DNA from: Candidatus Saccharimonadota bacterium | GTDB taxonomy: Bacteria; Patescibacteriota; Microgenomatia; UBA1406; GWC2-37-13 | DNA: 32,000 nucleotides | Assembly (NCBI GenBank): GCA_001790095.1 | Contig: MGBH01000001.1 | Span: forward strand, 360,001-392,000 | Reading direction: 5' to 3' | Notes under the pieces: model-generated | Database searches by the model: none | What the model was told of the DNA's origin: nothing | Seen by the model: the letters and a program-made list of their open reading frames with translations, nothing else | Program-made: the position numbers and the translations under genes | Part shown: piece by piece, positions 10,824 through 25,532 of the stretch | How positions within the stretch are numbered: position 1 is the first letter of the stretch | Layout: each line of letters starts with the position of its first letter

Positions 10824-11366
10824 ATGCATGAGGACATTGAAGCCATATATGAACAGATAAAAAAAGAAGAGAATTTTATCACAAAGGCAAAGCTTCTTCG
10901 TTTCCTAGTCGTTGACAAAGAGATAAGAATAAAAGACATAAGTAAAAAAATAGGAATAAAGGAATCATATATTTGTCATATTCTTAGGCTTAATAAGTTG
11001 ACTGACATGATTGTAGATGGATATTATTCAAAGCTTATTTCAATAAGTCATCTATTTATCATATCCCGATTAAAGACAAATGAAGACATCTCAAAAGCAT
11101 ATGAGAAAGTGTTATCAGATAGCTTGACTGTTGGCCAAACGGAGGAACTTATTCGAGAAACACTTTATCAGACAAAAACAGTAGGGGAGCATCTCTCAAA
11201 GGATGAGGTTGATAAATCAAGGCAAGATATCAAACTTCTATTTGACGGTGTTGATTTAAAAATAGTTCAAACACGGATAAAAAGCCGATGTATATTAGAT
11301 ATGAAAGGAAGTTTAGCTGAGACAACACCCCTGATCAGACAGATACTAAAAAAGTTAATCTCTTAA
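10824..11366 (+). CDS. ParB/Spo0J-like HTH domain protein lacking the N-terminal ParB/Srx box
   Basis: KDISKKIGIKESYICHILRLNKLTDMIVDGYYSKLISISHLFIISRL...LTVGQTEELI resembles the ParB central HTH plus the sVR.tE.L segment. I saw no GERRxRA-type box. An extended -10 (TGATAAAAT, 10809-10817) lies 6 nt before the ATG. Confidence 0.5.
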   Translation: MHEDIEAIYEQIKKEENFITKAKLLRFLVVDKEIRIKDISKKIGIKESYICHILRLNKLTDMIVDGYYSKLISISHLFIISRLKTNEDISKAYEKVLSDSLTVGQTEELIRETLYQTKTVGEHLSKDEVDKSRQDIKLLFDGVDLKIVQTRIKSRCILDMKGSLAETTPLIRQILKKLIS

Positions 11367-11930
11367 ATTGGTTGGAAATGGATTATTGATGGGTCCGACC
11401 TTGTTTGATGGAAAGTAGCGATAGAATACCAAACCAATCACGCTTGAGGCGGAAATAGGTCCAAACTCCCTTGAATCAGACGATCGCGGACGATTGTCTC
11501 CCATGACAAAAAGTTCTTCTTCAGGCACGATGATTTCCTCTCCGTTTTTTGAAAAGCCTCCCTCCCACAGATTTGTTTTGGCTGAGATGTAGTTCTCAGT
11601 CAATTGAATGTCATTAACATATACTTCTGAGTCCTTAATCATTATTTTATCCCCAGGAAGCCCAACAATACGTTTGATATACTCGATATCAGGGTTTTTA
11701 GGTGATTTGAATACCACCACATCTCCTCTTTCATAAGCACGGAATTTACTTGATATTTTACTTGTGAATATGTAGTCTCCAGAGTTGAAGGTTGGATCCA
11801 TAGATGCACCTTTTACCTGGTTTGGTTGCATTACAAATAAATAAACCACTATGAAAAGGGAGCCAATAAAAACAACCGTTTCAAGTATATCCATCACAAA
11901 CTCAAAGAAGCCTTTAAGTATTTTCAGCAT
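11355..11930 (-). CDS. lepB: Signal peptidase I, bacterial type (S26A, LepB)
   Basis: It has an N-terminal TM helix. Motifs seen: GASMDPTF (catalytic Ser box), YIKRIVGLPGD (catalytic Lys box), GDNRPRSSDSREFG. The 3' end overlaps the convergent ParB-like gene by 12 nt. Confidence 0.9.
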   Translation of the reverse strand: MLKILKGFFEFVMDILETVVFIGSLFIVVYLFVMQPNQVKGASMDPTFNSGDYIFTSKISSKFRAYERGDVVVFKSPKNPDIEYIKRIVGLPGDKIMIKDSEVYVNDIQLTENYISAKTNLWEGGFSKNGEEIIVPEEELFVMGDNRPRSSDSREFGPISASSVIGLVFYRYFPSNKVGPINNPFPTNLRD

Positions 11931-13426: not shown

Positions 13427-13976
13427 CAACGAAACAAGACGTATCGATGAGCTTTGTATTTTACTACAGAATCATATTGTTACCGAGATAACCCCAATGC
13501 ATATTTCAGATAACGATGTTGCAAAAAACGATCTTATTATCCTTACGGGTAGCCATAAGGTTTCCCTTATTGGGCACGAGGCTTATTTTAACAAGGAGAT
13601 TGAACTTATTAAGTCCTGTTCCAAACCTATAATTGGTATTTGTTTGGGGTTGCAGCTCATTGCTTATGCCTATGAGGGTTTTGTAGGTCGAATGCCGGCA
13701 AAACATGATGGAATAAAAAATATCCAAGTAGTGGGGTCTGATCCCATATTTGGTGAAAAAAGCTCATTTAAAGTATATTCAAGTCATCGATGGATGGTAG
13801 AACGGATAGATTTTCCTTTAATTGGTTTAGCACGAAGTGAGGATGGATGGGAGATAGTAAAACACTCAAACAAAAACATATATGGTTTTCAATTTCATCC
13901 AGAAGTACAACAAAAAAACATATTAGATGGCAAATGGCTTTTTGAAAGGATAGTTCAGACAGTTTGTCCTTCTTGA
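13407..13976 (+). CDS. Class I glutamine amidotransferase-like protein (GATase1 / peptidase C26 fold)
   Basis: Nucleophile elbow IGICLGLQLIA (Cys) and FQFHPE (His-Glu) in a 189-aa protein. It overlaps folC by 20 nt. The specific partner or activity cannot be told from sequence. Confidence 0.75.
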   Translation: MNILVINNETRRIDELCILLQNHIVTEITPMHISDNDVAKNDLIILTGSHKVSLIGHEAYFNKEIELIKSCSKPIIGICLGLQLIAYAYEGFVGRMPAKHDGIKNIQVVGSDPIFGEKSSFKVYSSHRWMVERIDFPLIGLARSEDGWEIVKHSNKNIYGFQFHPEVQQKNILDGKWLFERIVQTVCPS

Positions 13977-15202
13977 TTCTTCAATAGCAGTCTTCTTATT
14001 AAAGTAATACTTACTATTATCATAAGATCTAAAACGATAAAGTACCTACAGAAAAACGATGAAGTGTTGGCAAACACAAAGAAGCTGTAGGTAAAGCACT
14101 TATTTATAAGGCGAAATACTAAAAATGTTGCAATAACCCCCGCAAGGCCCATAAGATTATGTTTACGGTTGTTTATATTCTTTGCAACAAGGAAGTAATA
14201 AAGAGAAGCTAGTATTCCCTCCACAAGCAGTATCTGCCACCATAGACAGTTACATGTTTCAATTCCCTTTACTTCACCGATCTGTTCCCTTGTTTCAGGG
14301 GGAGAAAGAGTTGGGGCGGGCGTACTTGTGATGGTGGTTTCACCAGCGACTTCACCCGCCGGCACTGCCGGTCCTCCAAAGAAAGTAGTGAAGAGACCTA
14401 AAACTCCGCCTGAGGGTGCAGACGATGAGCTTTGTGCAGAAGATGATGAGGCTGAGCTTTGTTGTTGACAGTCTGCATAGCGTATCGTGACAGTCTGTGA
14501 AGGGTATCCGTTGTCTGGCTCAGCTTTTACTTCATCGTCTGTTGAGTAGCTGTATCCCGCGACAGCCTTTCCGTCACTTCCTGTATTTACTTCTTGGACT
14601 GATCCTTTATAAGTAAACTTGACTTTTACTCCAGACTGGACAACCCCATTGTCTTTTAACTCCATAATAGCGTCAAAATTGGAGTTAGTACATGATGTGT
14701 AAAGAGAAGAGGTTTTACCGATGGGTTGATCGAGAAATCCTATGGAAAGGTCAAACTTGGTTGAGGTATTTTGATACTCATTTCCAGCATCAAGATCCAT
14801 AGATACAGTAAATGCAAAGGTTTCAGATGACCCATTTCCCAGACTTGTCAAAAGCTCTGTTTCACCGTTTGCATAAAATGAACTTAAAAGTCCAGACCAG
14901 GCTTGTGAACTGTCAGATCTGGTTATAGTAAGATGCATTACATGGTCAAGATTACCGTTGGTTACCTCATTTGATGAATCTGCTCCAACTTTTTGACTGG
15001 TACCGCTTGCATTTGTGATCTGAACCGTTTTTGTCATGGTTTTACCCGGATACCATACTTCTGATGAAGGGAAAAAATTCGTAATAATGGATGGAGTACA
15101 GTCAGAGCTTGTACAGGTTACATTTTCATCAGCCGCAAAAGCTGATTGGGTAACGATCAATAAACCAAACGTCATTAACAGTATCAAAAATATTTTTTTC
15201 AT
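13955..15202 (-). CDS. Secreted protein with an N-terminal TasA/camelysin-like beta-sandwich, a Cna-B-like domain, a Ser-rich linker and a C-terminal 3-4 TM membrane domain (candidate fibre anchor)
   Basis: Domain evidence along the protein:
- Classical signal peptide MKKIFLILLMTFGLLIVTQSAFA|A.
- ...PGKTMTKTVQITNASG...MDLDAGNEYQNTSTKFDLSIGF resembles the PGD...N.G... and gN.YQg...f.f.F.a.Q blocks of TasA/CalY.
- Linker SSASSSSAQSSSSAPSGG.
- Hydrophobic C-terminus (WWQILLVEGILASLYYFLVA, LMGLAGVIATFLVF, YFIVLDLMIIVSITLI).
The start overlaps the upstream stop as ATGA. The ORF is well supported; the function is tentative. Confidence 0.6.
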   Translation of the reverse strand: MKKIFLILLMTFGLLIVTQSAFAADENVTCTSSDCTPSIITNFFPSSEVWYPGKTMTKTVQITNASGTSQKVGADSSNEVTNGNLDHVMHLTITRSDSSQAWSGLLSSFYANGETELLTSLGNGSSETFAFTVSMDLDAGNEYQNTSTKFDLSIGFLDQPIGKTSSLYTSCTNSNFDAIMELKDNGVVQSGVKVKFTYKGSVQEVNTGSDGKAVAGYSYSTDDEVKAEPDNGYPSQTVTIRYADCQQQSSASSSSAQSSSSAPSGGVLGLFTTFFGGPAVPAGEVAGETTITSTPAPTLSPPETREQIGEVKGIETCNCLWWQILLVEGILASLYYFLVAKNINNRKHNLMGLAGVIATFLVFRLINKCFTYSFFVFANTSSFFCRYFIVLDLMIIVSITLIRRLLLKNQEGQTV

Positions 15203-18200
15203 GGTTTAGTCTCCAATAGTATTTCTTTGCCTTCTTTATCTGTCAGCACAACTGTTAATGTCAAATTCTCTGTATCTGTAAGTTTAGTGCACACACCTCC
15301 TGAGCATGTTTCAAGGATAATGCCTTTTGCTTCATACTTGTCCTGGCCAGATAATACTTCCTCCGACGAGGAATTATCCGCAATGATTTTTTTGGTCAAA
15401 CTATTTTCAAGCTTATAGGTTAATTCAGAATAGGCGGTAATGTTTTCCACTATAAATCCTATTGAGTCTTTGGTCTCTGAAAAAATGAGTATTACTTTTG
15501 GATTTTTATCAAGTGCAACTGTTGGCGCAAGAGTTAAAGTAGGGGTGGGTGGTATAGTTTGTTTAAGTTTACGATTATACGGCTCATTTTCCGATCGGTT
15601 TTCAACTCTTGGAGTGCCTCTTATATCTGATCCTGTAACCCCGACGGTAAAAAAGTCTGTATAGGATTGAGCATCAATACATGAGTACCAATTTAAAGGA
15701 TCCGTACCGTCTCCAGGTATTGAGGTACGCTCCATAGAGTAATATTTGAGATTGACAGCATCATATAATCCCTCACCTTCACCATCTGAAAGATTGTACG
15801 TGTAGTCCCAAGCTGAATCAAGCACGTTGTCTAAAGAATCAGTGAGTTGTAGTTGTAGGTGTCCTGCAGCCAAATCAACAGAAGTAGTTACAAGATCGGC
15901 TGTGACTAAAGGTCTCAGCTGACTATCTGAAGAGCCGGGTGTATAGTTTGCTATGAGATAATATCCACGAGCTTCAATGAAAGAAGATGGTAAAGTAATC
16001 ATATCTACATATGTTGATCCATTATATTTTTGAATCTTAAACCCAGTGAGATCAATCGTTCGATCTGTCATATTGCGAAGCTCAATCCATTCATCAGCAG
16101 AGGATACGCTTGAACCCATCCACATAAGCTCATTTATTATAAGATCGCCCGGTGAAACAGTTGTGGCTGGAGAGAGAGGTGTGGTTGTGCTGCTTGTTGT
16201 ATAGATGTCTGACCAATTTGGTGCTTCATCTGCAGCCTTTATTGCAAAATAATAAGTAGTAGAAGGATTGAGGCCCAAGATTTCAATTGTTTCTTCTAGT
16301 CCGGACTCATTAGGTACTGGGCTTTTGCCAGAGGATGTGGCCGTCTCAAAGTTGTCAAGATCAATGGGGGAAGTAGAATATCGTATATCATATTTTGCAG
16401 CCTTTCCTGACGCCCCGTCGTTGCCTGGTGCAGTCCATGATAATGTCGCTGAGTTTGCACCGATTTCATCCACCTGAAGATCTGTTATCTGGGATGGCGC
16501 TTGAGTGTCGGTTATGATCTGAACTCTATAGATCAAGCTCTCATTTCCTGCATTATCAACTGCCTTGTATTCAACCCAATGATCGCCGTGTTCTGTTACC
16601 TGAAATGTTGAGGGAGTTTGTTGCCATGATCCACCTCCAATGCGGTATTCGTAATGGTTTATGCCTGAAGAGGAGTCTGTACCTGATAAAGTATAGATAG
16701 CGTGACCTGGAGCTGATACAAAATAAGTGGTTATCGCATCTACGTAACCCCACGATTGACGGGTGTCATCATAACTGTTGCCTGCATAAATAGCTAGATT
16801 GATGTTTTCGCTATCAGAATAATTACTTAAATCATAGTAGAATTGTTGCCAACCGCTTGATGTTGCGATACCCACATCCGTATCATCAAGTACAGATGGA
16901 TCTAATTTAAATACCTCCTGACCATTTAACCGTATGAAGAAGCCCGGATCATCAAATGGAGCAAAATCATAAGACGCATAGTTATAGTGAAGGGATAAAC
17001 TTTTTGCCCCTCCGGATATCGACTGCATAAGGCGGTTTTCCCAAACTTTATTACCTTGATCGGTCGGATAGGTATAGTTGCCAATCTTTGCCATAGACAA
17101 ACCCTCATATGGATTGATTACCAGATCTGGTTCGGGAGACAATTGAGGAATGGTATCACTAGCTATGACATCTACATCTCCTGCAGTTGTCCAACCGTTC
17201 AATCCGTCTTCTAACCCACCATTAACAACTTTTTCCTCAACAGCCTTGGTATAGGATCCGGTTATCGAAAGAGAGACAGGAGATGGAGCAACACTATCGT
17301 AGACGATTGAACACTCAGAGGACCAGACAGAAATATTATTTGTTTTGTCATATGCTCTTACTTTATAGGTATGGACTCCTTGTCCTGCGTTGAAGACGCC
17401 TGTGTATTGTGAAGAGATGACAAAGGTACTCCATGTACCAATCGTCCCGTCTAGCTTGGGATAGGTGATAAAGTACTCGTATTTCTCTATTTGCCCAGGG
17501 AAAGGATCTATTACATTATCCCAGTCAGCAATTATGCTATAACTATTTGTTGCTCCGCCACAGGAGATGATAGTACCGTCTGCTTTTTTCCATAGCAGGT
17601 TGGTCGGCGCAGGGGGAGCGGTGTTGTCTACTATCACTTTCCAAGCAGGAGTCCAGTCGCTACAGTTATCCAATGTGTCGCAAGCCTTTACATGCCACCA
17701 ATATTCACCGTCCGGCGTGCCTGGAGCTGGTATTTGGGATGCGGAAAGATGGCCTGAAGTATATGCTAAGGGTGAAAATCCCGGATTTCTTGCACTTTGA
17801 TATATATAATAAACAGGGTTATGCATATCTTCATAATCAGTTACATCCGACCAATCCATAACCAATCCAGACGTATTTCTATATGAATTATTAGTAGGAG
17901 ACAAAAGAGTGGGTACGGGCGGAGGTACAAAATCTTTAACTGAAAATGTAACCCCCGACGCAGTAGAAGAGGATACAAAAAGAGCTCTCGATATCTCACT
18001 TACTCCATATATAACCAAGCCGTTTAATATAAAAGCAAGCAATATGACATTTTTTAGCAATGCTTTCCCTTTTTTATTCTTTGTTTTTTCAAGAACTTGA
18101 TTTGTACGTCTTTCTACTTCCTCATCAATACCCAGTTTTATTGTTTTTATCTGAAGAACAGCTAAAATCAAAGCAGGAAAAATCACAATTGCCGCAAACC

Positions 18201-18714
18201 CCTTTGGTGTTTTGATCAATGCCCCTATATGACCGAGATAGGGGACTGAAAAGAGAAACTGTCCTTTTATCATGGTTTGTGAGATGGTCCAGCTGTCGGG
18301 TGAGTTGTTATTATCTCCTTTTGTCATAAAGGTCTTTTCCTTCCCCGATTTGTTAACAGCGATGATTCTATGAAGTACGGTAAGTTTTGAGTCTTTAGGA
18401 GAAGTAAATGTTATTATGTCGCCTTTTTTGAGCTTGGTTGTCTCTGCGGGTTTTACAAATGCAACAGATCCTGCATGGATAGCCGATTCCATAGAGCCTG
18501 TGGCTACAATATATGTATATATATACTTCTTTGTGGGTAGAAGGGGTGAGAGGACTATGAGAAATGTAGCGATCAGCACGGCAAATATAGCCCACTCAAA
18601 TACTATGCCCACCGTCTTGAGTATCTTCCATACCTTTGCCGTATTGTTTTTTTCTACTTCTTTCTTAGCCATATAAATACTTATCTGACAGTAGGAAGCG
18701 GCGTCCCGCCTCAT
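15199..18714 (-). CDS. Fusion ORF: archaeal/ER-type signal peptidase I (SipW-like, S26B) joined to an internal SipW-class signal peptide and a ~920-aa multidomain passenger (FN3-like x3-4, CBM-like jelly roll, lamin-tail domain)
   Basis: SipW part (about aa 15-190, 18145-18672):
- TM helix, then ATGSMESAI (Ser box), VLHRII (His box), TKGDNNNSPD, then a second TM helix.
Junction (aa 213-256, 17947-18078):
- KKGKALLKNVILLAFILNGLVIYGVSEISRALFVSSSTASGVTF.
Passenger:
- Domain boundaries DNTAPPAP, DSVAPSP, DTQAPSQ.
- VVNGGLEDGLNGWT (CBM-like).
- LSWTAPGNDG...YDIRYS...YYFAIKAADEAPNWS (FN3).
- LIINELMWMG...DEWIELRNMTDRTIDLTGFKI (LTD).
The likely real start is ATG 18672 (MAKKEV). Confidence 0.8.
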   Translation of the reverse strand: MRRDAASYCQISIYMAKKEVEKNNTAKVWKILKTVGIVFEWAIFAVLIATFLIVLSPLLPTKKYIYTYIVATGSMESAIHAGSVAFVKPAETTKLKKGDIITFTSPKDSKLTVLHRIIAVNKSGKEKTFMTKGDNNNSPDSWTISQTMIKGQFLFSVPYLGHIGALIKTPKGFAAIVIFPALILAVLQIKTIKLGIDEEVERRTNQVLEKTKNKKGKALLKNVILLAFILNGLVIYGVSEISRALFVSSSTASGVTFSVKDFVPPPVPTLLSPTNNSYRNTSGLVMDWSDVTDYEDMHNPVYYIYQSARNPGFSPLAYTSGHLSASQIPAPGTPDGEYWWHVKACDTLDNCSDWTPAWKVIVDNTAPPAPTNLLWKKADGTIISCGGATNSYSIIADWDNVIDPFPGQIEKYEYFITYPKLDGTIGTWSTFVISSQYTGVFNAGQGVHTYKVRAYDKTNNISVWSSECSIVYDSVAPSPVSLSITGSYTKAVEEKVVNGGLEDGLNGWTTAGDVDVIASDTIPQLSPEPDLVINPYEGLSMAKIGNYTYPTDQGNKVWENRLMQSISGGAKSLSLHYNYASYDFAPFDDPGFFIRLNGQEVFKLDPSVLDDTDVGIATSSGWQQFYYDLSNYSDSENINLAIYAGNSYDDTRQSWGYVDAITTYFVSAPGHAIYTLSGTDSSSGINHYEYRIGGGSWQQTPSTFQVTEHGDHWVEYKAVDNAGNESLIYRVQIITDTQAPSQITDLQVDEIGANSATLSWTAPGNDGASGKAAKYDIRYSTSPIDLDNFETATSSGKSPVPNESGLEETIEILGLNPSTTYYFAIKAADEAPNWSDIYTTSSTTTPLSPATTVSPGDLIINELMWMGSSVSSADEWIELRNMTDRTIDLTGFKIQKYNGSTYVDMITLPSSFIEARGYYLIANYTPGSSDSQLRPLVTADLVTTSVDLAAGHLQLQLTDSLDNVLDSAWDYTYNLSDGEGEGLYDAVNLKYYSMERTSIPGDGTDPLNWYSCIDAQSYTDFFTVGVTGSDIRGTPRVENRSENEPYNRKLKQTIPPTPTLTLAPTVALDKNPKVILIFSETKDSIGFIVENITAYSELTYKLENSLTKKIIADNSSSEEVLSGQDKYEAKGIILETCSGGVCTKLTDTENLTLTVVLTDKEGKEILLETKP
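17947..18078 (-). other. Internal SipW-class signal peptide within the 1171-aa ORF
   Basis: It has a K-rich n-region, the h-region VILLAFILNGLVIYGV, then SEISRA|LFVSSSTASGVTF. This aligns with the N-terminus of the TasA-like protein (GGTAYA|LFSSSVTASGVTF). The DNA of the two segments is not similar, so conservation is at the protein level. Confidence 0.65.
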
Positions 18715-18738
18715 GCTGTCAAGAAGTACTTAATTAAG

Positions 18739-19299
18739 TTATGGCGCAACTTGAGTACCTGTGATCAACCAAGTTGTGGCAGTTGTTTTATTTGCTATGC
18801 TATTTCCTGCATCACTTGGAACCTGGACATAGATTCTCATCAATTTTTGCTCACTTTGAGCAAGTGTAATGGTGATATCTCTTTCTAAGGAATTCCAGTC
18901 TGCTAAGGTGTAGTATCCGCTACCAACAGCGCCTGCATCATCACCGATCCAAGCAGTGATAACTGGTGATAAGACACCCCAGTCACCGGTTGCTGCAGTT
19001 AGTCTTGCGCTTAAGCGAAGACTAATAGGCGATGTACTTGTGTTTCTTAAATAGAATTCGTTGTAACCGTTATATCCTGGATATAGATTCTGAAATGTGG
19101 TTGGAAAAGTTACATTTTGAGTCCATGTTGAAGCTGGTACGACGCCTGGTCCATTTGACCAAAACTCTAAGTTGGCATTACCAGTTGCAAACGTCACTCC
19201 GCTTGCCGTGACACTGCTTGAGAACAACGCATACGCTGTTCCACCGACAACAGCTGTTAACATAACCAATCCTAAGAATCCTGCTATTATTTTATTCAT
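18739..19299 (-). CDS. TasA/camelysin-like (Peptidase_M73 family-like) secreted protein with a SipW-class signal peptide; candidate major fibre subunit
   Basis: MNKIIAGFLGLVMLTAVVGGTAYALFSSSVTASGVTFATG parallels B. subtilis TasA ...LVGGGTWAAFND...ATFASGTLDL. The C-terminal block DAGNSIANKTTATTWLITGTQ parallels the TasA/CalY ...N.YQG....f.f.f.atQ end. It has the only strong SD in the window (AAAGGAGGTGA, 7 nt before the ATG). Confidence 0.7.
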   Translation of the reverse strand: MNKIIAGFLGLVMLTAVVGGTAYALFSSSVTASGVTFATGNANLEFWSNGPGVVPASTWTQNVTFPTTFQNLYPGYNGYNEFYLRNTSTSPISLRLSARLTAATGDWGVLSPVITAWIGDDAGAVGSGYYTLADWNSLERDITITLAQSEQKLMRIYVQVPSDAGNSIANKTTATTWLITGTQVAP

Positions 19300-19354
19300 A
19301 TATTTTCACCTCCTTTCAAATTAACTTAATCAAATTGTTAACAAACGAAAAGCA

Positions 19355-19392
19355 CAAAAAAAACCAACCTTGTTTTCAAAAAAACTTGGTTG
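19355..19392 (-). terminator. Intrinsic-terminator-like hairpin plus T8 (minus strand) between the sortase gene and the TasA-like gene
   Basis: The minus-sense sequence is CCAACC-AA-GTTTT-TTTG-AAAAC-AA-GGTTGG followed by TTTTTTTT (T-tract at 19362-19355). It lies downstream of a promoter-like element, so it could act as an attenuator rather than a simple terminator. Confidence 0.45.
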
Positions 19393-19420
19393 GCATGTGG
19401 CGTATACATGTGATTAGATC

Positions 19421-19449
19421 ATCCTACACCCTTTAAAAATATTTGTCAA
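19421..19449 (-). promoter_or_regulatory. Promoter-like element TTGACA-N17-TAGGAT (minus strand) upstream of the TasA-like gene
   Basis: -35 TTGACA at 19449-19444, a 17-nt spacer, -10 TAGGAT at 19426-19421 (4 of 6 matches to TATAAT). Confidence 0.4.
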
Positions 19450-19512
19450 GCGATAGTCTTACAGACGTATTAAATGTTGACATTACAACCTAAAAACTAT
19501 TACAGAATTTAT

Positions 19513-20202
19513 TTATTTAGTGAGCTGCGCATCGACGATAAGCCGCTTAAATGTAGTACCTGGGGGCCAGCAAGTCATAAGACTTATTGTTTTTTTTGTT
19601 TTATCTTGTTTTAAATATTTAAGTTCACTTGGCTCAACGATCTTACTGCCTGTTACTTTATATTTGAATTTATCTCCTTTATAAAATAGATAAATATCGT
19701 CGTTTGTTTTAAGCTTAGTTAAAAGATAAAAAATAGCATTATATCTGTTTGCTTGATGCCAATTTGCAGCAGAATGCGCAAAGATAAAGGTATTGCCGTA
19801 TTCTCCAGGATATGCCGTGTCACGAGCATGCGCCACTCCTTTGGTAAGTTGTAACTGATACTCTTTTTCATTAAACGGGCTTACGTTGGCAATAACGGGT
19901 GAATTGGCACCTATCTTAGGTATCACTAATCCGTATTGTTCATCAACCGGTTCGATCACCTTATTACTTGTTATCAAGGTTGGCTTTTCTTCATTTTTTG
20001 AGAGGACAAGAAAATTGTTCACTCCTGGTTTTAAATAGAAAGATATTTCTTGAAACAAGACAGGATAATATATAAGAGTAAGAAGGACTAATCCGGCGGA
20101 AATAAATGCAAATCCACCGACCATCAACAAACGATGTATGTGATTTGGCTTAAAGCCATTCTTTTTTACTTTTTTCCGAATTTCTTTTTTTGTTTTTGAC
20201 AT
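19513..20202 (-). CDS. Sortase-family cysteine transpeptidase
   Basis: It has a basic N-terminus and one TM helix. Motifs seen: LVIPKIG, GNTFIFAHS (catalytic His), ISLMTCWPPGT (TLxTC-type catalytic Cys), KRLIVDAQL (Arg). Starting at 20202 overlaps the upstream ORF tail by 53 nt in an A-rich, Lys-coding stretch. Alternative start at ATG 20124. Confidence 0.85.
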   Translation of the reverse strand: MSKTKKEIRKKVKKNGFKPNHIHRLLMVGGFAFISAGLVLLTLIYYPVLFQEISFYLKPGVNNFLVLSKNEEKPTLITSNKVIEPVDEQYGLVIPKIGANSPVIANVSPFNEKEYQLQLTKGVAHARDTAYPGEYGNTFIFAHSAANWHQANRYNAIFYLLTKLKTNDDIYLFYKGDKFKYKVTGSKIVEPSELKYLKQDKTKKTISLMTCWPPGTTFKRLIVDAQLTK

Positions 20203-23200
20203 AATAAATAGCTCCTAAAATCAATGCTACTAAACCAAGTATGCTAAGTATAATCACCTTACGGTTAGCGACCCAGTTTAATGCATTAGAAAATACGTCT
20301 TTGTCCTTCTGAGTTTTCTCACCTAAGACACTTTCATTATTGTTAGATGTGTTTGCTCCGCTTGTTTCTTCTTGATTTACCTCTTCGGCACCTTGTACCT
20401 CTCCTTCAGTCTCACCTGCTGCAAGGGTGACATTGGTGACAGGAATTGCTCCGCCACCACCTGTGGTTGTCCCTGTACTTGTGCCGGGATTTGAGACAGT
20501 GGTTGTGGTGCCAGTGGTTGTAGTTGTGGTGGTTGTCACCGTGACACTATCTCCCACAAGACCTGAGCCATTGTCAGCACTATCAAAAGCTCTTAATACA
20601 TAGAAATAGGTTTTGTTACAGTCTCCGACAATATCATTATAGCTCCCATTTTGATTGGAACCAATAGATATTGTGGTACGTCTAGATCCTGAATCTGCTG
20701 TAAAGGAGGTATTTTCAGAACGATATACCTCTACTCTGGTTGTTTTGCCACCATCGTCTGCAGTGCGAAACATGATCTTGTATTCACAGGATGACACTTT
20801 TTCTTTTGCATAATTTGTCGGCGTACCTGGTCCGCTTGTATTATAGTCAACAGTTATGGTTTCACTCGTTGCAAAATCATCACTTGTTGTGGCTGTTGCA
20901 TAAAATTGAAAGGTACCATTTTCACTAATCATGCTTGATTCAAGAGGACATAATCCGCTGTTTCCGCCAGCTGTAACAGATATGTCACCACCTATTTGGT
21001 TATAAGCAGAGCTTGGCTTTTTCATGTAGCATCTTACGGTGACAGGTAAACCCTTAAGGTCCAATGTGACATAACCGAGATTAAAATCATTGATGCGGGA
21101 TGGGCTTTTTGGTTGTACAAGCCTCACGTGTAGATTAGTTACGGCTTGAACCCCACCGGAAACAGTTAAAAACAAAGCTGTTGCTATAACAAAAGCAGAA
21201 ATCCTCAAGGCAAATGTTTTTTTCTGGAATAAAGCTGAGATGAACATAGACAGTCCGATAAGTATCATGAGTCCTGATAGCATTACCCATATGCTTGGTG
21301 TGCCAGTTCCTGGCAGACCAGTTGAAGCACCAAGTACATCACCATTCTCAGTTACCTCTTTTTTTTCTTCTTTTCTCACATCTACACCAGAGGAATCTTG
21401 CTGGGTTTGATTTATACTTACTTTTGTACCTACAAATGTGTCAATTCCTGTAAACGTACCTGGGTCGACGGTGCCTGAATCTACGGCTTGAGCAAGCAGG
21501 GCGTCAGAGCTTTCAATGGTGCATTCGGTACTTGTTGTACACCCAACAGCCCATGCAAGATCTTTATAGAGTCCTGGTTTTTGACTACCATCAATTACGG
21601 CGGTATACACAAGTTCGATAATGTCCCCAGCATCTGTATCTCCAATCTGCCATTCACCAGGGGAATGATATTGAGGTTCTGGAATAGCAAACTCAACTCC
21701 ATTTTTATATGTTTTCCAGCTTCCAGCCTTATAGGTAAATCCGGAAGGTGGAAGATCAGTTACCACAACGTCCTTGACTCCGTAGTCTAATATCTTCAAA
21801 GTAAGTTTGTATACGACTTCATTACCAGGAGTTGTATCATTTGGCCACGTTGTATTGAATTTGGACAAAGTCATGTATGGTTCAATATGTCTGTTGCCGA
21901 TATAGCAATGGACTACTTCTCCCACATTAACAGTAACACTGTGAAGATTGTCATTGTCTTCATGTGATTCATCACCATCACAATACATGGTGGTTTGAGT
22001 CCATCCTGGTTGAGATTCAAGGTCTTCACTAAAATCATAGACACCCTCTGGTAGTTCAAAACTCACCTCACCGGATTCGGTAGTGGTCTTTATTACTTCG
22101 TTAAGAATTATATTCCAGCCTGATAAATAAGTATCAACATCCTGATCTATATATGAGTCGCCGTCAACATCTTCAAATTTGGTTACTATAACCTGTCCAG
22201 TTGTCGGGGTGACTGTTGGACCAACTTTAAAGTTATCAGTTTTTGAACAATCACTTGGGAAATCTGGGCTTGAGCTTACCCAAACCTTATATTCACCGCC
22301 TGGATTTGAAGTATCTGCAAAAGCTGTCAATTCAAAGAGGTTATAGCATTGTTCGAAACTACCATCAACCACTGTGATTGAAGGTGTGTTGCTTTGACCA
22401 AGCAAAGTGCCGTCTGGCTCAGTCACTTTTACATAATACTGCCCGTCAGGTAGACCCGATCCGTTACCGTTTGGCCCACCGTTCAAATAAACATCTGTCT
22501 TTAATGCGTAATTCACATTTTCATTTACCACTTCACAATACCTATCGGTTGTCCATACAGCTCCATTTAAGTGTTCACAGGATGGAGCGGATGAAGAGGA
22601 AGAAGAGGATGAACTCGAGGATGAACTCGTGGATGAACTTGAAGATGAGCTGCTAGAGGAGGAAGACGAAGATGAACTAGAACTACTTGAAGAAGAAGAC
22701 GAAGAGGTTGATGAACTACTTGAACTACTTGATGAAGAACTTGATGAAACAGAGGTTGGTGTTGGTGTTACTCCATTGATTGAATATACACAGTCTGAAG
22801 GATCCGAATTTGGCTCACCTGATGGATAAGAACAAACATCAAGAAGTGTAGCGTTTGTACCACCACCGATGTCAGCCATCTGTACTGTGCATGTTGCAAC
22901 AGCATCATCCGGGTAATGATCTCCTTCTGGGTCAAATGGATCATCTGGCAACACGCTTACAGAACAAGAAGAAGTATTTGTGATTTCAGTAGCTTGCATA
23001 CATCTGTCGACCCTATCATTCCTACATGAGTAAAGAACCAATGAATCAAATTCTGCAGGGGTGTTTGTAACTGACACACATAAAGAATAGTTTGCAAAAC
23101 CATCACCGTCTGTATCAAAGAGACTACATCCGTCTCCAGTATTTGCTCCTGTCCATCCTATTTCATCCCACTGCATTTTCATTTCAAAATAAACATCCAT

Positions 23201-24280
23201 TTCAGAATTATCAAAACACATACGAGTCATGTCTTTTTGACCTGGTTCATCATTGGGCCCTTCAGAATCTGCATAACATACCCAGTTTGCATCTGTGAAT
23301 GTTGTTGTAGCAACGAGTACGCCTAACTGGTCTTTTACCTCAACCTTATAGTTTGGTCTGTATATCCCGTCAAGCTGATAGGTATATGTGAATGTGCCAA
23401 ATGCGTCAGTTGTGGTTGATCCTACCGTATATACGGCTGGTGCATCGTCAGATGAAACCACTATGGTGTAGGTATAGCCAGGGGTAAAATTCTCACCCGT
23501 GATAACTGCTTTTTCAGTCGGAGCATAGTCACTCTTGTCTGTCCAAACTGATGGATCAACATATGCTTGATTATTGCTTTCAATTATTGTTATCTGTATT
23601 GTTTCATCGCCGGTTTCTAAATTAGCGCCCTGTGTGGGTGCAACAGTGACAGTAGGAGAAATCTGTGTTGATATGCCATCAAGTATTTCACCTTTTTCAA
23701 CTACTGTAGGAGTGGGCTGCAGTGCTGGGGTAGAAGTAATGGTTGGAGAAACTTCAAGATCCTTGCCATTTTCAATCCAATATTTTTCATCGTCTGTCAT
23801 CTCAGTTACAGAGCCGACCGTATCTTCTTTCTCGATTCTTATCTCACCATTTTCCAAAAGAAATCTTTGTATTCTAAACCAGTTCTGATTTGCTAAATTG
23901 ACTTTCAAAATACCTCTTGGAACAGTATGATTTATGCATGTTCCATGCGTTGAGCAGGTTTTTGCTTCCAGTTCCTTTATAAAATTTTCAATCCCAAGTT
24001 CAGTTTCACCTTGAACCGCCTCAATCTGATTAGTTGAGTTAGGAGAATCATTTTTGTAAAGAAGCGAATACGTAATTTTTCCTGAAGTAATGCTGTTTTC
24101 TTTTGTGTTTATCTCAAACTTAAACGCTCCTTTTTGACTTTCATATCCAAGTTTTACCGATAAAGGCTCAGATGAAAAAACGTACTGCGGTACGATATAG
24201 AGGTAGGGAGTAAGTGTGTTAAAAAGAAGAGATAAGATTGTTAAAAAGCCAAAAGCCTTGCGAAGAATTTTTTGTCTCAT
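20150..24280 (-). CDS. Giant surface protein with an internal LPGTG sortase signal (aa 989-993), followed by a second ectodomain and a C-terminal TM anchor
   Basis: Order along the protein:
- N-terminal signal-like helix.
- Ig/Big-like modules.
- A Cys- and Asp-rich region (DTDGDGF).
- A ~55-aa Ser tract.
- A Cna-B/SdrD-B-like module (VIVTKFEDVDGDSYID...GW...).
- A DUF11-like repeat (VTDLPPSGFTY).
- LPGTG, a 25-aa hydrophobic stretch and QKK.
- TFALRISAFVIATALFLTVSGGVQA.
- Two FN3-like modules.
- A Thr-rich linker.
- TM helix VIILSILGLVALILGAIYYV followed by KNKKRNSEKSKKEWL. Confidence 0.85.
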   Translation of the reverse strand: MRQKILRKAFGFLTILSLLFNTLTPYLYIVPQYVFSSEPLSVKLGYESQKGAFKFEINTKENSITSGKITYSLLYKNDSPNSTNQIEAVQGETELGIENFIKELEAKTCSTHGTCINHTVPRGILKVNLANQNWFRIQRFLLENGEIRIEKEDTVGSVTEMTDDEKYWIENGKDLEVSPTITSTPALQPTPTVVEKGEILDGISTQISPTVTVAPTQGANLETGDETIQITIIESNNQAYVDPSVWTDKSDYAPTEKAVITGENFTPGYTYTIVVSSDDAPAVYTVGSTTTDAFGTFTYTYQLDGIYRPNYKVEVKDQLGVLVATTTFTDANWVCYADSEGPNDEPGQKDMTRMCFDNSEMDVYFEMKMQWDEIGWTGANTGDGCSLFDTDGDGFANYSLCVSVTNTPAEFDSLVLYSCRNDRVDRCMQATEITNTSSCSVSVLPDDPFDPEGDHYPDDAVATCTVQMADIGGGTNATLLDVCSYPSGEPNSDPSDCVYSINGVTPTPTSVSSSSSSSSSSSSSTSSSSSSSSSSSSSSSSSSSSSSSSSTSSSSSSSSSSSSSAPSCEHLNGAVWTTDRYCEVVNENVNYALKTDVYLNGGPNGNGSGLPDGQYYVKVTEPDGTLLGQSNTPSITVVDGSFEQCYNLFELTAFADTSNPGGEYKVWVSSSPDFPSDCSKTDNFKVGPTVTPTTGQVIVTKFEDVDGDSYIDQDVDTYLSGWNIILNEVIKTTTESGEVSFELPEGVYDFSEDLESQPGWTQTTMYCDGDESHEDNDNLHSVTVNVGEVVHCYIGNRHIEPYMTLSKFNTTWPNDTTPGNEVVYKLTLKILDYGVKDVVVTDLPPSGFTYKAGSWKTYKNGVEFAIPEPQYHSPGEWQIGDTDAGDIIELVYTAVIDGSQKPGLYKDLAWAVGCTTSTECTIESSDALLAQAVDSGTVDPGTFTGIDTFVGTKVSINQTQQDSSGVDVRKEEKKEVTENGDVLGASTGLPGTGTPSIWVMLSGLMILIGLSMFISALFQKKTFALRISAFVIATALFLTVSGGVQAVTNLHVRLVQPKSPSRINDFNLGYVTLDLKGLPVTVRCYMKKPSSAYNQIGGDISVTAGGNSGLCPLESSMISENGTFQFYATATTSDDFATSETITVDYNTSGPGTPTNYAKEKVSSCEYKIMFRTADDGGKTTRVEVYRSENTSFTADSGSRRTTISIGSNQNGSYNDIVGDCNKTYFYVLRAFDSADNGSGLVGDSVTVTTTTTTTTGTTTTVSNPGTSTGTTTGGGGAIPVTNVTLAAGETEGEVQGAEEVNQEETSGANTSNNNESVLGEKTQKDKDVFSNALNWVANRKVIILSILGLVALILGAIYYVKNKKRNSEKSKKEWL
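21218..21316 (-). other. Complete cell-wall sorting signal (LPGTG, hydrophobic helix, QKK) at an internal position
   Basis: LPGTG is encoded at 21316-21302. TPSIWVMLSGLMILIGLSMFISALF and QKK follow, down to 21218. The ORF continues in frame with no stop. Confidence 0.8.
22589..22753 (-). repeat. Ser-tract coding region (aa 510-564; about 55 residues, nearly all Ser, interrupted by V and T)
   Basis: SVSSSSSSSSSSSSSTSSSS...SSSS then APSC. It uses mixed TCN and AGY codons rather than a pure trinucleotide repeat. The antisense frame gives a spurious E/D/L-rich ORF (22629-22829). Confidence 0.9.
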
Positions 24281-24502: not shown

Positions 24503-24982
24503 TTATGGATGATCGGGGTGAATAGGATGCTCAGGATGTTCAGGGTGAATAGGATGCTCAGGATGATCTTTTGATACTTCAGCAGAAGAGGATGAGGATG
24601 AAGATGTTGAAGAAGAGGAGTTGCTAGATATAGAGGTGGTAGGTTGCAAAGAACTATCCGAACCGGCTGATGTCTTAAGAGGGGTTGGAGTAATTTTTTG
24701 CGTAGTTTTTGTCTCTTCTTGTATTTTCTGGGATGAATCTGCTTTTGGCAACTTTGTAGCTATTATGCTTGTAGCTACTATTCCTGCAGTAACAACAGTT
24801 AGCAGCCGTTTGTTTGCGATTTTTTTAACTTTATTTAATATTCCTTTTGTCTGAGGTGGGAGTGGAAGATTATGCGCACAATGATGAAGAAGTGTGTTTT
24901 TTAGCGCCTGCCTTTGATTGTGGCCAAGGACAAAGCCTCCCTTTAGAGAGCTCAAATTGTGTATTAATTTTTTATCTTCCAT
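24503..24982 (-). CDS. Single-pass membrane protein translationally coupled to the ECF sigma (putative anti-sigma factor) with a Ser-rich linker and a C-terminal (HPx)7 tail
   Basis: The start overlaps the sigma stop by 11 nt. The TM helix is LLTVVTAGIVATSIIA. The extracytoplasmic part is SISSNSSSSTSSSSSSSAEVSK then DHPEHPIHPEHPEHPIHPDHP. I did not recognise a canonical zf-HC2 motif, so the anti-sigma call rests on context. Confidence 0.45.
   Translation of the reverse strand: MEDKKLIHNLSSLKGGFVLGHNQRQALKNTLLHHCAHNLPLPPQTKGILNKVKKIANKRLLTVVTAGIVATSIIATKLPKADSSQKIQEETKTTQKITPTPLKTSAGSDSSLQPTTSISSNSSSSTSSSSSSSAEVSKDHPEHPIHPEHPEHPIHPDHP
24516..24569 (-). repeat. 27-bp tandem duplication (2 copies) encoding the HPEHPIHPE/HPEHPIHPD repeat
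   Basis: On the plus strand, gggtgaataggatgctcaggatg is repeated at 24516-24542 and 24543-24569. The first 22 nt are identical and the last 5 differ. Confidence 0.85.
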
Positions 24983-25532
24983 TGTTTAGTATTTGTTTTA
25001 ACTTAGCGATTGCTCTATGTTGGGTCACTCTGACTGACTCTGGTGATTTATCGATAATAACTGCCACTTCCTGCACTGGCAAATCCTCAATAAAACGCAA
25101 AATGACGATTTCCTTATAATCTTGAGGAAGCTGCGCGATCGCCTCATGAAGCTTTTGACATTCATCATCTTTGGTCACCTTATCTAAAATTTCAGATTTA
25201 CCGTCATGTTTATCAAATTTTTCAAAAGTATCGATATTAGTTATATTCGTTTTTTTCTTATCATCAAAATAATCGTAAATCAAATTTCGTGCTATAGCGT
25301 ATAGAAAAGCCCGAAAATTGTCTTTTTTATATTTATATATATAACTCCAAGCTTTCTTAAAAGTTTCACTTACGATATCTTCTGAATCGGGTACAGAATG
25401 TAGTTGGATCATGCAGTAGCGAAAGATTTCATCGGATAAAAGCTCAAAGAGTTTTCCATACGAATCAATATCGCCTTTTTGGCCCAGTTTTACCAAGTTC
25501 TCAATATCCATCTTTGTATAAGACCTCGGCAT
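24972..25532 (-). CDS. ECF-type RNA polymerase sigma-70 family factor
   Basis: 186 aa. Region 2-like segment: DIVSETFKKAWSYIYKYKKDNFRAFLYAIARNLIYDYF. Region 4 HTH: YKEIVILRFIEDLPVQEVAVIIDKSPESVRVTQHRAIAKLK. Confidence 0.85.
   Translation of the reverse strand: MPRSYTKMDIENLVKLGQKGDIDSYGKLFELLSDEIFRYCMIQLHSVPDSEDIVSETFKKAWSYIYKYKKDNFRAFLYAIARNLIYDYFDDKKKTNITNIDTFEKFDKHDGKSEILDKVTKDDECQKLHEAIAQLPQDYKEIVILRFIEDLPVQEVAVIIDKSPESVRVTQHRAIAKLKQILNNGR

Follow-up and report, generated by a model that had tools for sequence, protein, structure and literature searches.

How a surface fibre that grows by donor-strand exchange is begun, ended and held at the cell is the question raised by a group of five minus-strand genes in a 32,000-nucleotide stretch of contig MGBH01000001.1 (GenBank assembly GCA_001790095.1, positions 360,001 to 392,000 of the forward strand), referred to here as the window. 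The five genes encode a 1376-amino-acid (aa) LPGTG surface protein, a sortase, a 186-aa protein, a 1171-aa open reading frame (ORF) and a 415-aa protein. The window is matched by genomes of Candidatus Roizmanbacteria, a lineage within the Candidate Phyla Radiation (CPR), and its 186-aa protein is 100% identical to a protein of RIFOXYC2_FULL_38_9. Donor-strand fibres of the TasA type are emerging as widespread, chaperone-free surface filaments of Gram-positive bacteria and archaea, and their start, their stop and their attachment to the cell are still mostly models. The last three genes of the group seem to assign one role to each protein, namely a tip that only donates a strand, a shaft subunit that has a strand as well as a groove, and a membrane anchor that only accepts. 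It is probable, at about 60%, that this locus is the CPR version of a TasA-superfamily donor-strand fibre with such a tip, shaft and anchor, in which we infer the insertion of strands from one protein into the next. The three genes are as follows.

18739-19299, minus strand: TasA/camelysin-like major (shaft) subunit, 186 aa, assigned from fold and profile matches
15199-18714, minus strand: polyprotein ORF, 1171 aa, comprising a SipW-type peptidase, an internal signal peptide, a donor-like strand and a modular passenger
13955-15202, minus strand: putative acceptor-only membrane anchor or terminator, 415 aa

The proposed shaft subunit

The 186-aa protein had been described as TasA-like in the initial annotation, which worked from the sequence alone, and structural and profile comparisons agree; its identity as a divergent relative of TasA and camelysin is supported. 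An AlphaFold2 (AF2) model (pLDDT 82), in which the N-terminal 40 residues are unstructured in the monomer, finds the TasA fibre 8aur_A as its best Foldseek match in the PDB (E 1.3e-6, probability 1.00, TM-score 0.53), and the lower ranks include the donor-strand fibres Hyper2, ABP, FimG, CanA and the Sulfolobus 0406 filament. Profiles were built for the subunit family (A1), for the 415-aa family (A2 and A5), and for the window subunit together with its CPR relatives and syntenic M73 genes (A3). The A3 profile matches TasA (5of1/8aur) at E 3e-8 and AbpX (9sj2) at E 2e-7, and its alignment pairs the strand region of the subunit with the TasA donor-strand region KSKDATFASGTLDL. When the A1 profile was searched by itself against the PDB nothing significant was returned, and TasA was reached only after addition of the syntenic M73 members. 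Weak matches to Pfam family PF12389 (Peptidase_M73) are given by 25 of 30 subunit-family members (best E 7.3e-5), and the syntenic counterparts in four related loci (L004, L005, L012 and L023) exceed its cut-off, with 35-64 bits against 22.5.

The protein begins with what looks like a SipW-type signal peptide (aa 1-24), with predicted cleavage between AYA and LF, and a pattern in which the terminal Ala of the signal is followed by xF..(S/T)…G.(T)F.(T/A)G is plain to see. By conservation, the 16 residues at the mature N-terminus rank fourth among the 147 16-mers of the mature protein.

19180-19227, minus strand: predicted N-terminal donor strand of the subunit, aa 25-40, LFSSSVTASGVTFATG

No RR motif is present in MNKIIAGFLGLVMLTAVVGGTAYA or in the internal signal segment of the 1171-aa ORF, and the signals look Sec-type. 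The isopeptide triad of BsaA was also sought, and the A1 family has no invariant Lys or Glu.

A signal peptidase fused to the passenger

What had been read as a giant passenger protein is the C-terminal part of a polyprotein, the first ~200 residues of which are a SipW-type signal peptidase.

18142-18594, minus strand: SipW/archaeal-type signal peptidase I domain, aa 41-191 (TIGR02228)
17983-18069, minus strand: internal signal-peptide-like segment, aa 216-244, with a K-rich n-region, an h-region VILLAFILNGLVIYGV and a c-region ending SRA
17935-17982, minus strand: donor-like strand of the passenger, aa 245-260, LFVSSSTASGVTFSVK
17896-17934, minus strand: Pro-rich stop or linker DFVPPPVPTLLSP, directly after the strand; family motif [CDFY][FW]xxP
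15817-16698, minus strand: passenger modules identified with hidden Markov models (HMMs), an OmpL47-type beta-barrel (aa 673-728), fn3 (741-831) and a lamin-tail domain (LTD, 854-966)
15202-15576, minus strand: conserved ~110-aa C-terminal domain of the passenger family (…LSYEL.Y…TCSGE.VCTYD…), without a Pfam family

The peptidase domain scores 103 bits on TIGR02228 (cut-off 51.85) and carries the catalytic-type motifs GSMES, LHRII and KGDNN. The Bacillus SipW model NF046067 also matches (E 3.9e-28), but at 98 bits against a cut-off of 190, so the domain is not an equivalog. Hydropathy places a first transmembrane (TM) helix at ~33-55 and a second at ~172-192, followed by a Lys-rich loop and a third hydrophobic segment (222-240) that ends in SRA before LF. 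By sequence, then, the chain reads as a peptidase, next a complete Sec signal peptide, and last the passenger to be secreted. The ORF probably starts at M15, at position 18672.

A frameshift or an assembly artefact was considered as the origin of the fusion and is ruled out: independently made JGI, ENA and Logan assemblies contain the identical ORF on 24 contigs or more, and independent fused homologues exist. The fused architecture recurs in many CPR proteins with other passengers (LTD, RTX repeats), and in each fused homologue examined x-F/Y-S/T…G-I/V-T/S comes after small -3/-1 residues that would suit signal peptidase I. In three related loci (L004, L005 and L007) the passenger (357-847 aa) has a gene of its own next to that of the peptidase (191-209 aa), and there the passenger gene begins with a signal peptide and strand that match the internal segment of the fusion. 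The recovery of the ORF from so many contigs, the recurrence of fusions and the split-gene passengers that start at this point together indicate that the fusion is real and that its internal segment is a genuine signal peptide. The cis fusion of a passenger to a SipW-type peptidase is the most unusual feature of the locus. No member of the TapA/YqxM family appears among the Pfam or NCBIfam matches of the 1171-aa protein, and the passenger is analogous, not homologous, to TapA.

The content of the passenger had been given as a strand without a TasA body, a Pro-rich linker, and fn3, carbohydrate-binding and LTD modules. Most of this stands: fn3 and LTD score above their Pfam cut-offs, the linker is present, and the subunit-family HMM detects no TasA-like body. 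The OmpL47-type domain, above its NCBIfam cut-off, joins the inventory, and the carbohydrate-binding module leaves it, as no HMM confirms one. The two-Cys C-terminal domain is found in every fused or split passenger and is rare, with only 33 clusters at 50% identity (P0167-P0199) among 1.84e9 representatives. Eight of these clusters are SipW-fused and ~20 are stand-alone; the stand-alone members start with a signal peptide and a strand of the type x[FY][ST]D..S..N.F.A, then [CDFY]W..P, and in the smallest (134-158 aa) there is nothing besides signal peptide, strand and C-terminal domain. This unannotated domain is nearly always paired with an N-terminal SipW-type signal and a donor-like strand. 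To judge from these sequences, the strand and the C-terminal domain are the invariant parts of the passenger family and the modules between them vary. The possibility that the C-terminal domain is a hidden TasA-like acceptor was examined and dropped, with hhalign probability below 1% against both A1 and A2.

A strand shared by subunit and passenger

The mature N-termini of the subunit (LFSSSVTASGVTFATG, residues 25-40) and of the passenger (LFVSSSTASGVTFSVK, residues 245-260 of the ORF) are identical at 11 of 16 positions. The initial annotation had counted 12 of 16, a figure that is reached only when the Ala at -1 is included (12/17); the match itself, and its coexistence with divergent DNA, are upheld. 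A BLASTP alignment of the pair reaches back through the hydrophobic core of the signal peptide (19/42 identities, E 0.001). At the DNA level the strand region is identical at 30 of 63 positions and all seven codons of TASGVTF differ, and the likeness therefore points to selection on the peptide and not to a recent copy or duplication.

A check for co-variation of the two strands in related loci, proposed at the outset, was borne out. Across nine loci the subunit and passenger strands share on average 8.0 of 16 positions within a locus and 4.85 of 16 between loci (permutation p = 2e-5), and the cognate partner is the best strand match in four of the nine, or five if one tie is admitted.

A strand-less domain with a membrane anchor

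The 415-aa protein had been described as the reverse of the passenger, a TasA-like body with an ordinary signal peptide, no strand, and three to four C-terminal TM helices. Profile-profile alignment sustains the body, the signal and the missing strand, and the number of helices is settled at three.

14723-15133, minus strand: TasA-like beta-sandwich N-domain (hhalign), aa 24-160, after an ordinary signal peptide cleaved between AFA and AD, without a donor strand
13964-14242, minus strand: C-terminal membrane domain with TM helices at aa 321-342, 345-366 and 388-413 and a conserved C..C.WWQILL

Alignment of the two families with hhalign (A1 against A2) gives a probability of 97.2% and E 3.4e-11 over 163 columns, with an 18-column gap in the 415-aa family that falls exactly over AYALFSSSVTASGVTFAT, the strand of the subunit, so that the mature AAD of the one family aligns with the NAD/NAN directly after the strand of the other. 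The subunit HMM also matches the N-domain of the 415-aa family directly. Searches of the PDB with the A2 and A5 profiles were swamped by the fn3 domains of some homologues. In the AF2 model (pLDDT 74.7 overall, 80-90 in the N-domain) two beta-sandwich domains (25-156 and 163-240) are followed by a disordered linker and the three TM helices.

The family has ~15 members, in some of which the second domain is replaced by fn3. Two Cys residues, Cys30 and Cys35, do not vary in the family; they stand where the N-domain begins, in the place that a donor strand would occupy. A second pair, Cys317 and Cys369, is conserved and sits at the outer ends of the TM helices; disulfides are possible. In the stretch ahead of the first TM helix (aa 283-320) there are two copies of a short motif, (E/Q)V.G..T, with G287, V311 and G313 conserved, and a similar VLG[AE].T lies ahead of the anchors in the 1376-aa protein (DVLGASTGLPGTG, SVLGEKT). 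Such motifs may mark a site of processing or sorting in CPR surface proteins that has gone unrecognised.

Conservation of the gene order

Related loci were gathered with the A2 profile. Ten distinct loci, the window among them, keep the order of subunit, SipW (fused or split) with passenger, and 415-family gene (the others being L001, L002, L004, L005, L007, L008, L011, L012 and L023), and their labels are Roizmanbacteria, Saccharibacteria, Dojkabacteria and unclassified Patescibacteria. One further locus is a variant, in which the passenger (L010:1097-3238) has retained a TasA/M73 body, joined to SdrD_B and LTD modules as well as to the C-terminal domain, and a separate 146-aa ORF (L010:4673-5113) consists of the 415-family TM domain only.

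In Firmicutes, strand-less TasA-like domains likewise stand beside SipW and strand-bearing paralogues (L013:9406-10080, L024:842-1657 and L021:15772-16722), and these end in PPTG(D/E) or LPYTAT, a TM segment and a basic tail, that is, in sortase-type anchors. This suggests that the principle of an acceptor-only anchor is widespread and under-annotated.

Proposed assembly and alternative explanations

According to the proposed mechanism, the polyprotein would insert through the two TM helices of SipW and the third, signal-peptide-like segment, and SipW would cut between A244 and L245, in cis or in trans, to free a passenger that begins with a 16-residue mimic of the subunit's donor strand. This strand would fill the groove of the first 186-aa subunit and leave the strand of that subunit free for the next, as has been proposed for TapA, AbpB and TafC. 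The fibre would thus grow at its membrane-proximal end, and its distal tip would be the modular passenger with its domains of the OmpL47, fn3 and LTD types and its C-terminal domain. The 415-aa protein, translationally coupled to the tip gene and exported by the ordinary signal peptidase, would capture the last free strand in its strand-less TasA-like domain, ending the fibre and anchoring it in the membrane, as has been proposed for TafF and, by analogy, PapH. The 186-aa subunit would be produced in excess, since its gene comes first and has a strong Shine-Dalgarno sequence, and the stoichiometry of the parts would be set by that signal together with the coupling of the tip and anchor genes.

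19307-19315, minus strand: strong Shine-Dalgarno sequence AAGGAGGTG, 9 nt ahead of the ATG of the TasA-like gene
15199-15202, minus strand: stop/start overlap ATGA that couples the polyprotein and anchor genes

The overlap is present as the initial annotation had it; the strong Shine-Dalgarno sequence is as well, and the statement that the TasA-like gene alone has one is slightly too strong, as a GGAG lies 8 nt upstream of the start of the 415-aa gene.

Several observations weigh against this reading. Taken by itself, the 186-aa protein of the window falls short of the curated families, with 12.2 bits on PF12389 (gathering cut-off 22.5), in the N-terminal region only, and a weak match to TIGR04088 (cognate_SipW; 15.1 bits against 19, E 0.02, residues 9-41); the suggested search with the Peptidase_M73 model thus succeeded for the four syntenic genes and failed for the window protein. 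Cleavage at Ala244 of the polyprotein is a prediction, and co-variation of the strands would also be expected if both merely fit the same SipW. When the full 415-aa model was compared with the PDB by Foldseek, the matches were generic jelly-roll and Ig folds (GH2 enzymes), with no TasA in the top 50, so that the TasA-likeness of the putative anchor comes from profile-profile alignment. The monomer model of its N-domain, moreover, fits either an open groove or self-complementation by the Cys-bridged N-terminal segment.

One explanation that would account for much of the data is that the shared N-terminus is only a recognition or export signal for SipW, and that the subunit and passenger, possibly with others, are independently secreted, the passenger being a free or wall-associated adhesin and not a cap. 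NCBIfam does model this region as a class of signal peptide, the same TIGR04088 that the 186-aa protein matches weakly; two substrates that co-evolve with one peptidase would be expected to co-vary, and the fusion of peptidase and passenger itself points to a processing relationship. We nevertheless think this explanation unlikely. Signal peptidase I takes its specificity mainly from positions -3 and -1, and the conservation seen here runs 16-20 residues beyond the cleavage site, in what is among the most conserved segments of the mature subunit. The corresponding residues of TasA are its structurally resolved donor strand (PMC9674648). An export signal would also leave unexplained why the 415-aa protein keeps the body and is without exactly this segment.

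The roles of the two outer proteins might instead be reversed, such that the polyprotein remains uncleaved or membrane-associated and serves as cell-proximal nucleator and anchor, like TapA as first described, and the 415-aa protein either terminates the fibre, acts as an assembly platform or chaperone with a transient hold on subunit strands, or offers a dock to the fibres of another cell. The polyprotein has three TM segments, TapA was named as an anchoring and assembly protein and co-localises with the membrane (PMC10151520), and BsaA oligomers are anchored through the uncleaved signal peptide of the newest subunit (PMC11580942). Such an arrangement is nonetheless quite improbable given the canonical small -1/-3 site before the strand in all fused homologues examined, the split-locus passengers that have no anchor except a cleavable signal peptide, the large fn3 and LTD modules that are more typical of distal adhesins, and the permanent anchors, whether TM helices or sortase signals, of the 415-aa family and its Firmicutes analogues. 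It is harder still to credit that the resemblance is incidental, the 415-aa protein being a self-complete jelly-roll surface protein functionally unrelated to the 186-aa protein, with no fibre at all; the beta-sandwich enzymes among the Foldseek matches and the sub-threshold family scores would agree with it, but the three-gene order is kept across divergent CPR lineages, and the hhalign alignment of the two families as well as the fold and profile matches to TasA speak against it. A donor-strand fibre with the passenger at its tip and the 415-aa protein at its base is therefore the reading we prefer.

Neighbouring genes and expression signals

Two further genes of the group and one promoter-like site lie upstream of the subunit gene.

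20150-24280, minus strand: LPGTG surface protein, 1376 aa (ORF)
19513-20202, minus strand: sortase (ORF)
19421-19449, minus strand: sigma-70-like promoter match TTGACA-17-TAGGAT upstream of the TasA-like gene, by consensus only

The sortase and LPGTG protein were considered as conserved components of the system and set aside, since they are absent from all other loci. No LPXTG signal is present in the 186-aa, 1171-aa or 415-aa protein, so that the three do not qualify as a sortase-assembled Gram-positive pilus. The 1376-aa protein contains at aa ~985-1048 an internal GLPGTG, TM segment and QKK sorting signal followed by a signal-peptide-like …FLTVSGGVQA that ends before V, and at aa 1336-1376 a further C-terminal TM segment with KNKKR. 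This protein, too, may be a polyprotein, with the neighbouring sortase and a signal peptidase as the enzymes that cleave it. In the window as well as in L001-L005 the operon has the general signal peptidase LepB (window 11355-11930, minus strand) in its vicinity. A functional link was considered and not retained, as an IleRS-FtsW-L21-L27-ParB-LepB neighbourhood is common to the window and L001, and housekeeping synteny is probably the better explanation.

The promoter-like site agrees with the consensus at 10 of 12 positions and is the best on the minus strand within 13700-20400, in a region where such sites show no enrichment over shuffled sequence. Between this site (19449-19421) and the start of the TasA-like gene lies a hairpin, CCAACCAAGUUUU…AAAACAAGGUUGG, followed by U8 (window ~19350-19395, minus strand), which might serve as an attenuator in the leader or might terminate the sortase gene; the 5' leader has no match in Rfam, and the idea of a riboswitch or other known RNA was dropped. 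Directly upstream of the surface-protein genes, on the same strand, an ECF-type (extracytoplasmic function) sigma factor of 186 aa (Sigma70_r2/r4) overlaps a 159-aa protein of unknown function (window 24503-25532, minus strand), and the two are possible regulators of the cluster.

Implications for the CPR

It is conceivable, although we would put it at clearly less than even odds, that CPR bacteria make, in addition to type IV pili, another class of surface pilus, a TasA-superfamily fibre distinguished by a self-processing tip polyprotein with its own SipW-type peptidase and a strand-less three-TM terminator and anchor coupled to it one to one. If so, delivery of the peptidase, release of the nucleating strand and the start of the fibre would be coupled at one site in the membrane. 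A fibre with a variable modular tip could then be an organelle of host attachment in obligate episymbionts, and would provide contact-dependent CPR bacteria with a candidate means of adhesion other than type IV pili. The fusion of enzyme and nucleator makes both initiation, as cleavage that exposes a strand, and termination, as capture by a strand-less domain, testable with recombinant proteins.

Comparison with known systems

TasA of Bacillus subtilis polymerises by inserting residues 28-38 into the next subunit, and the N-terminus of TapA, which resembles the TasA donor strand, has been modelled and shown to initiate assembly, the Ig fold of TapA itself being complete (PMC9674648, PMC10151520). 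The tapA-sipW-tasA operon shares with the present locus a dedicated ER/archaeal-type peptidase encoded with its substrates, a TasA-fold subunit with a conserved N-terminal donor strand, and an accessory donor-only nucleator with a strand-mimicking N-terminus and no TasA body (PMC9674648, PMC10151520). The two differ in host and in gene order, in the cis fusion of the peptidase to the donor-only protein found here, in the passenger, which is far larger, modular and without detectable homology to TapA, and in the strand-less TasA-like membrane anchor, for which no counterpart has been described in B. subtilis.

The haloarchaeal Tat-fimbriae (tafi) follow the same proposed logic, with a donor tip, a strand-exchange shaft, an accepting TM anchor and a SipW-type peptidase in the locus. 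In the published model TafC is the tip and gives the first donor strand, TafE is an adapter, TafA forms the shaft, TafD is the SipW-type peptidase, and TafF, with an N-terminal pilin-like domain that accepts the TafA strand and a C-terminal TM segment, is terminator and anchor (PMC11821415, PMC12337348). The 415-aa protein has both hallmarks of an anchor of this type, a strand-less pilin-like N-domain (hhalign 97.2%) and C-terminal TM helices, here three in number. The differences are that tafi subunits carry Tat signals and those of the window look Sec-type, that TafC has a pilin-like domain and the passenger none detectable, and that here the peptidase is fused to the tip and the anchor has three TM helices. 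Neither a separate adapter nor a DUF5305/TafG partner was found among the window proteins scanned, and the likeness to tafi is one of proposed logic.

Among other TasA-superfamily donor-strand filaments are the archaeal bundling pili (AbpA/AbpB), in which AbpB has been proposed to donate the first strand and to bear distal adhesin domains like FimH, and homologues of PF12389 were noted in Patescibacteria in the same work (PMC9245690). Bacterial AbpX loci have LPXTG or SLH anchors predicted with AlphaFold 3 to join the fibril by strand complementation (10.64898/2026.01.04.697558). In contrast to the present locus, the ABP locus has no dedicated peptidase, the peptidase associated with AbpX has ten TM helices, and the anchors are wall-linked and not of the three-TM kind. 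The sipW-bsaA-bsaB-bsaC operon of Clostridium perfringens likewise combines SipW with TasA-like paralogues and donor-strand exchange, and an adjacent sortase and LPXTG-bearing BsaB homologue have been speculated to form its anchor (PMC11580942). The 415-aa protein matches the BsaA family model TIGR04090 faintly, at 13.8 bits. The subunits of BsaA are, however, locked by an N-E-K isopeptide triad, and bsa has no fused peptidase.

Chaperone-usher pili, with their FimH or PapG tip and PapH terminator, are alike in function only, in that they too grow tip-first at the base and have terminal subunits that lack a usable groove or strand. Their polarity is inverted, the tip being acceptor-only there and donor-only here, their sequences are unrelated, and no chaperone, usher or outer membrane is involved in the present case. 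In P pili the ratio of terminator to subunit sets the length of the pilus.

The initial annotation had held the three-part architecture to be at odds with the described scheme, a claim that does not survive comparison: a donor-only nucleator (TapA) and the complete tafi arrangement have been published, the AbpX and BsaA anchors are similar, and the architecture is accordingly not new in kind. The literature surveyed contained no description of SipW fused to its substrate, or of such a system in the CPR. What is new here is the CPR host, the fusion of a peptidase to its substrate, the three-TM anchor and the unannotated C-terminal domain of the tip protein.

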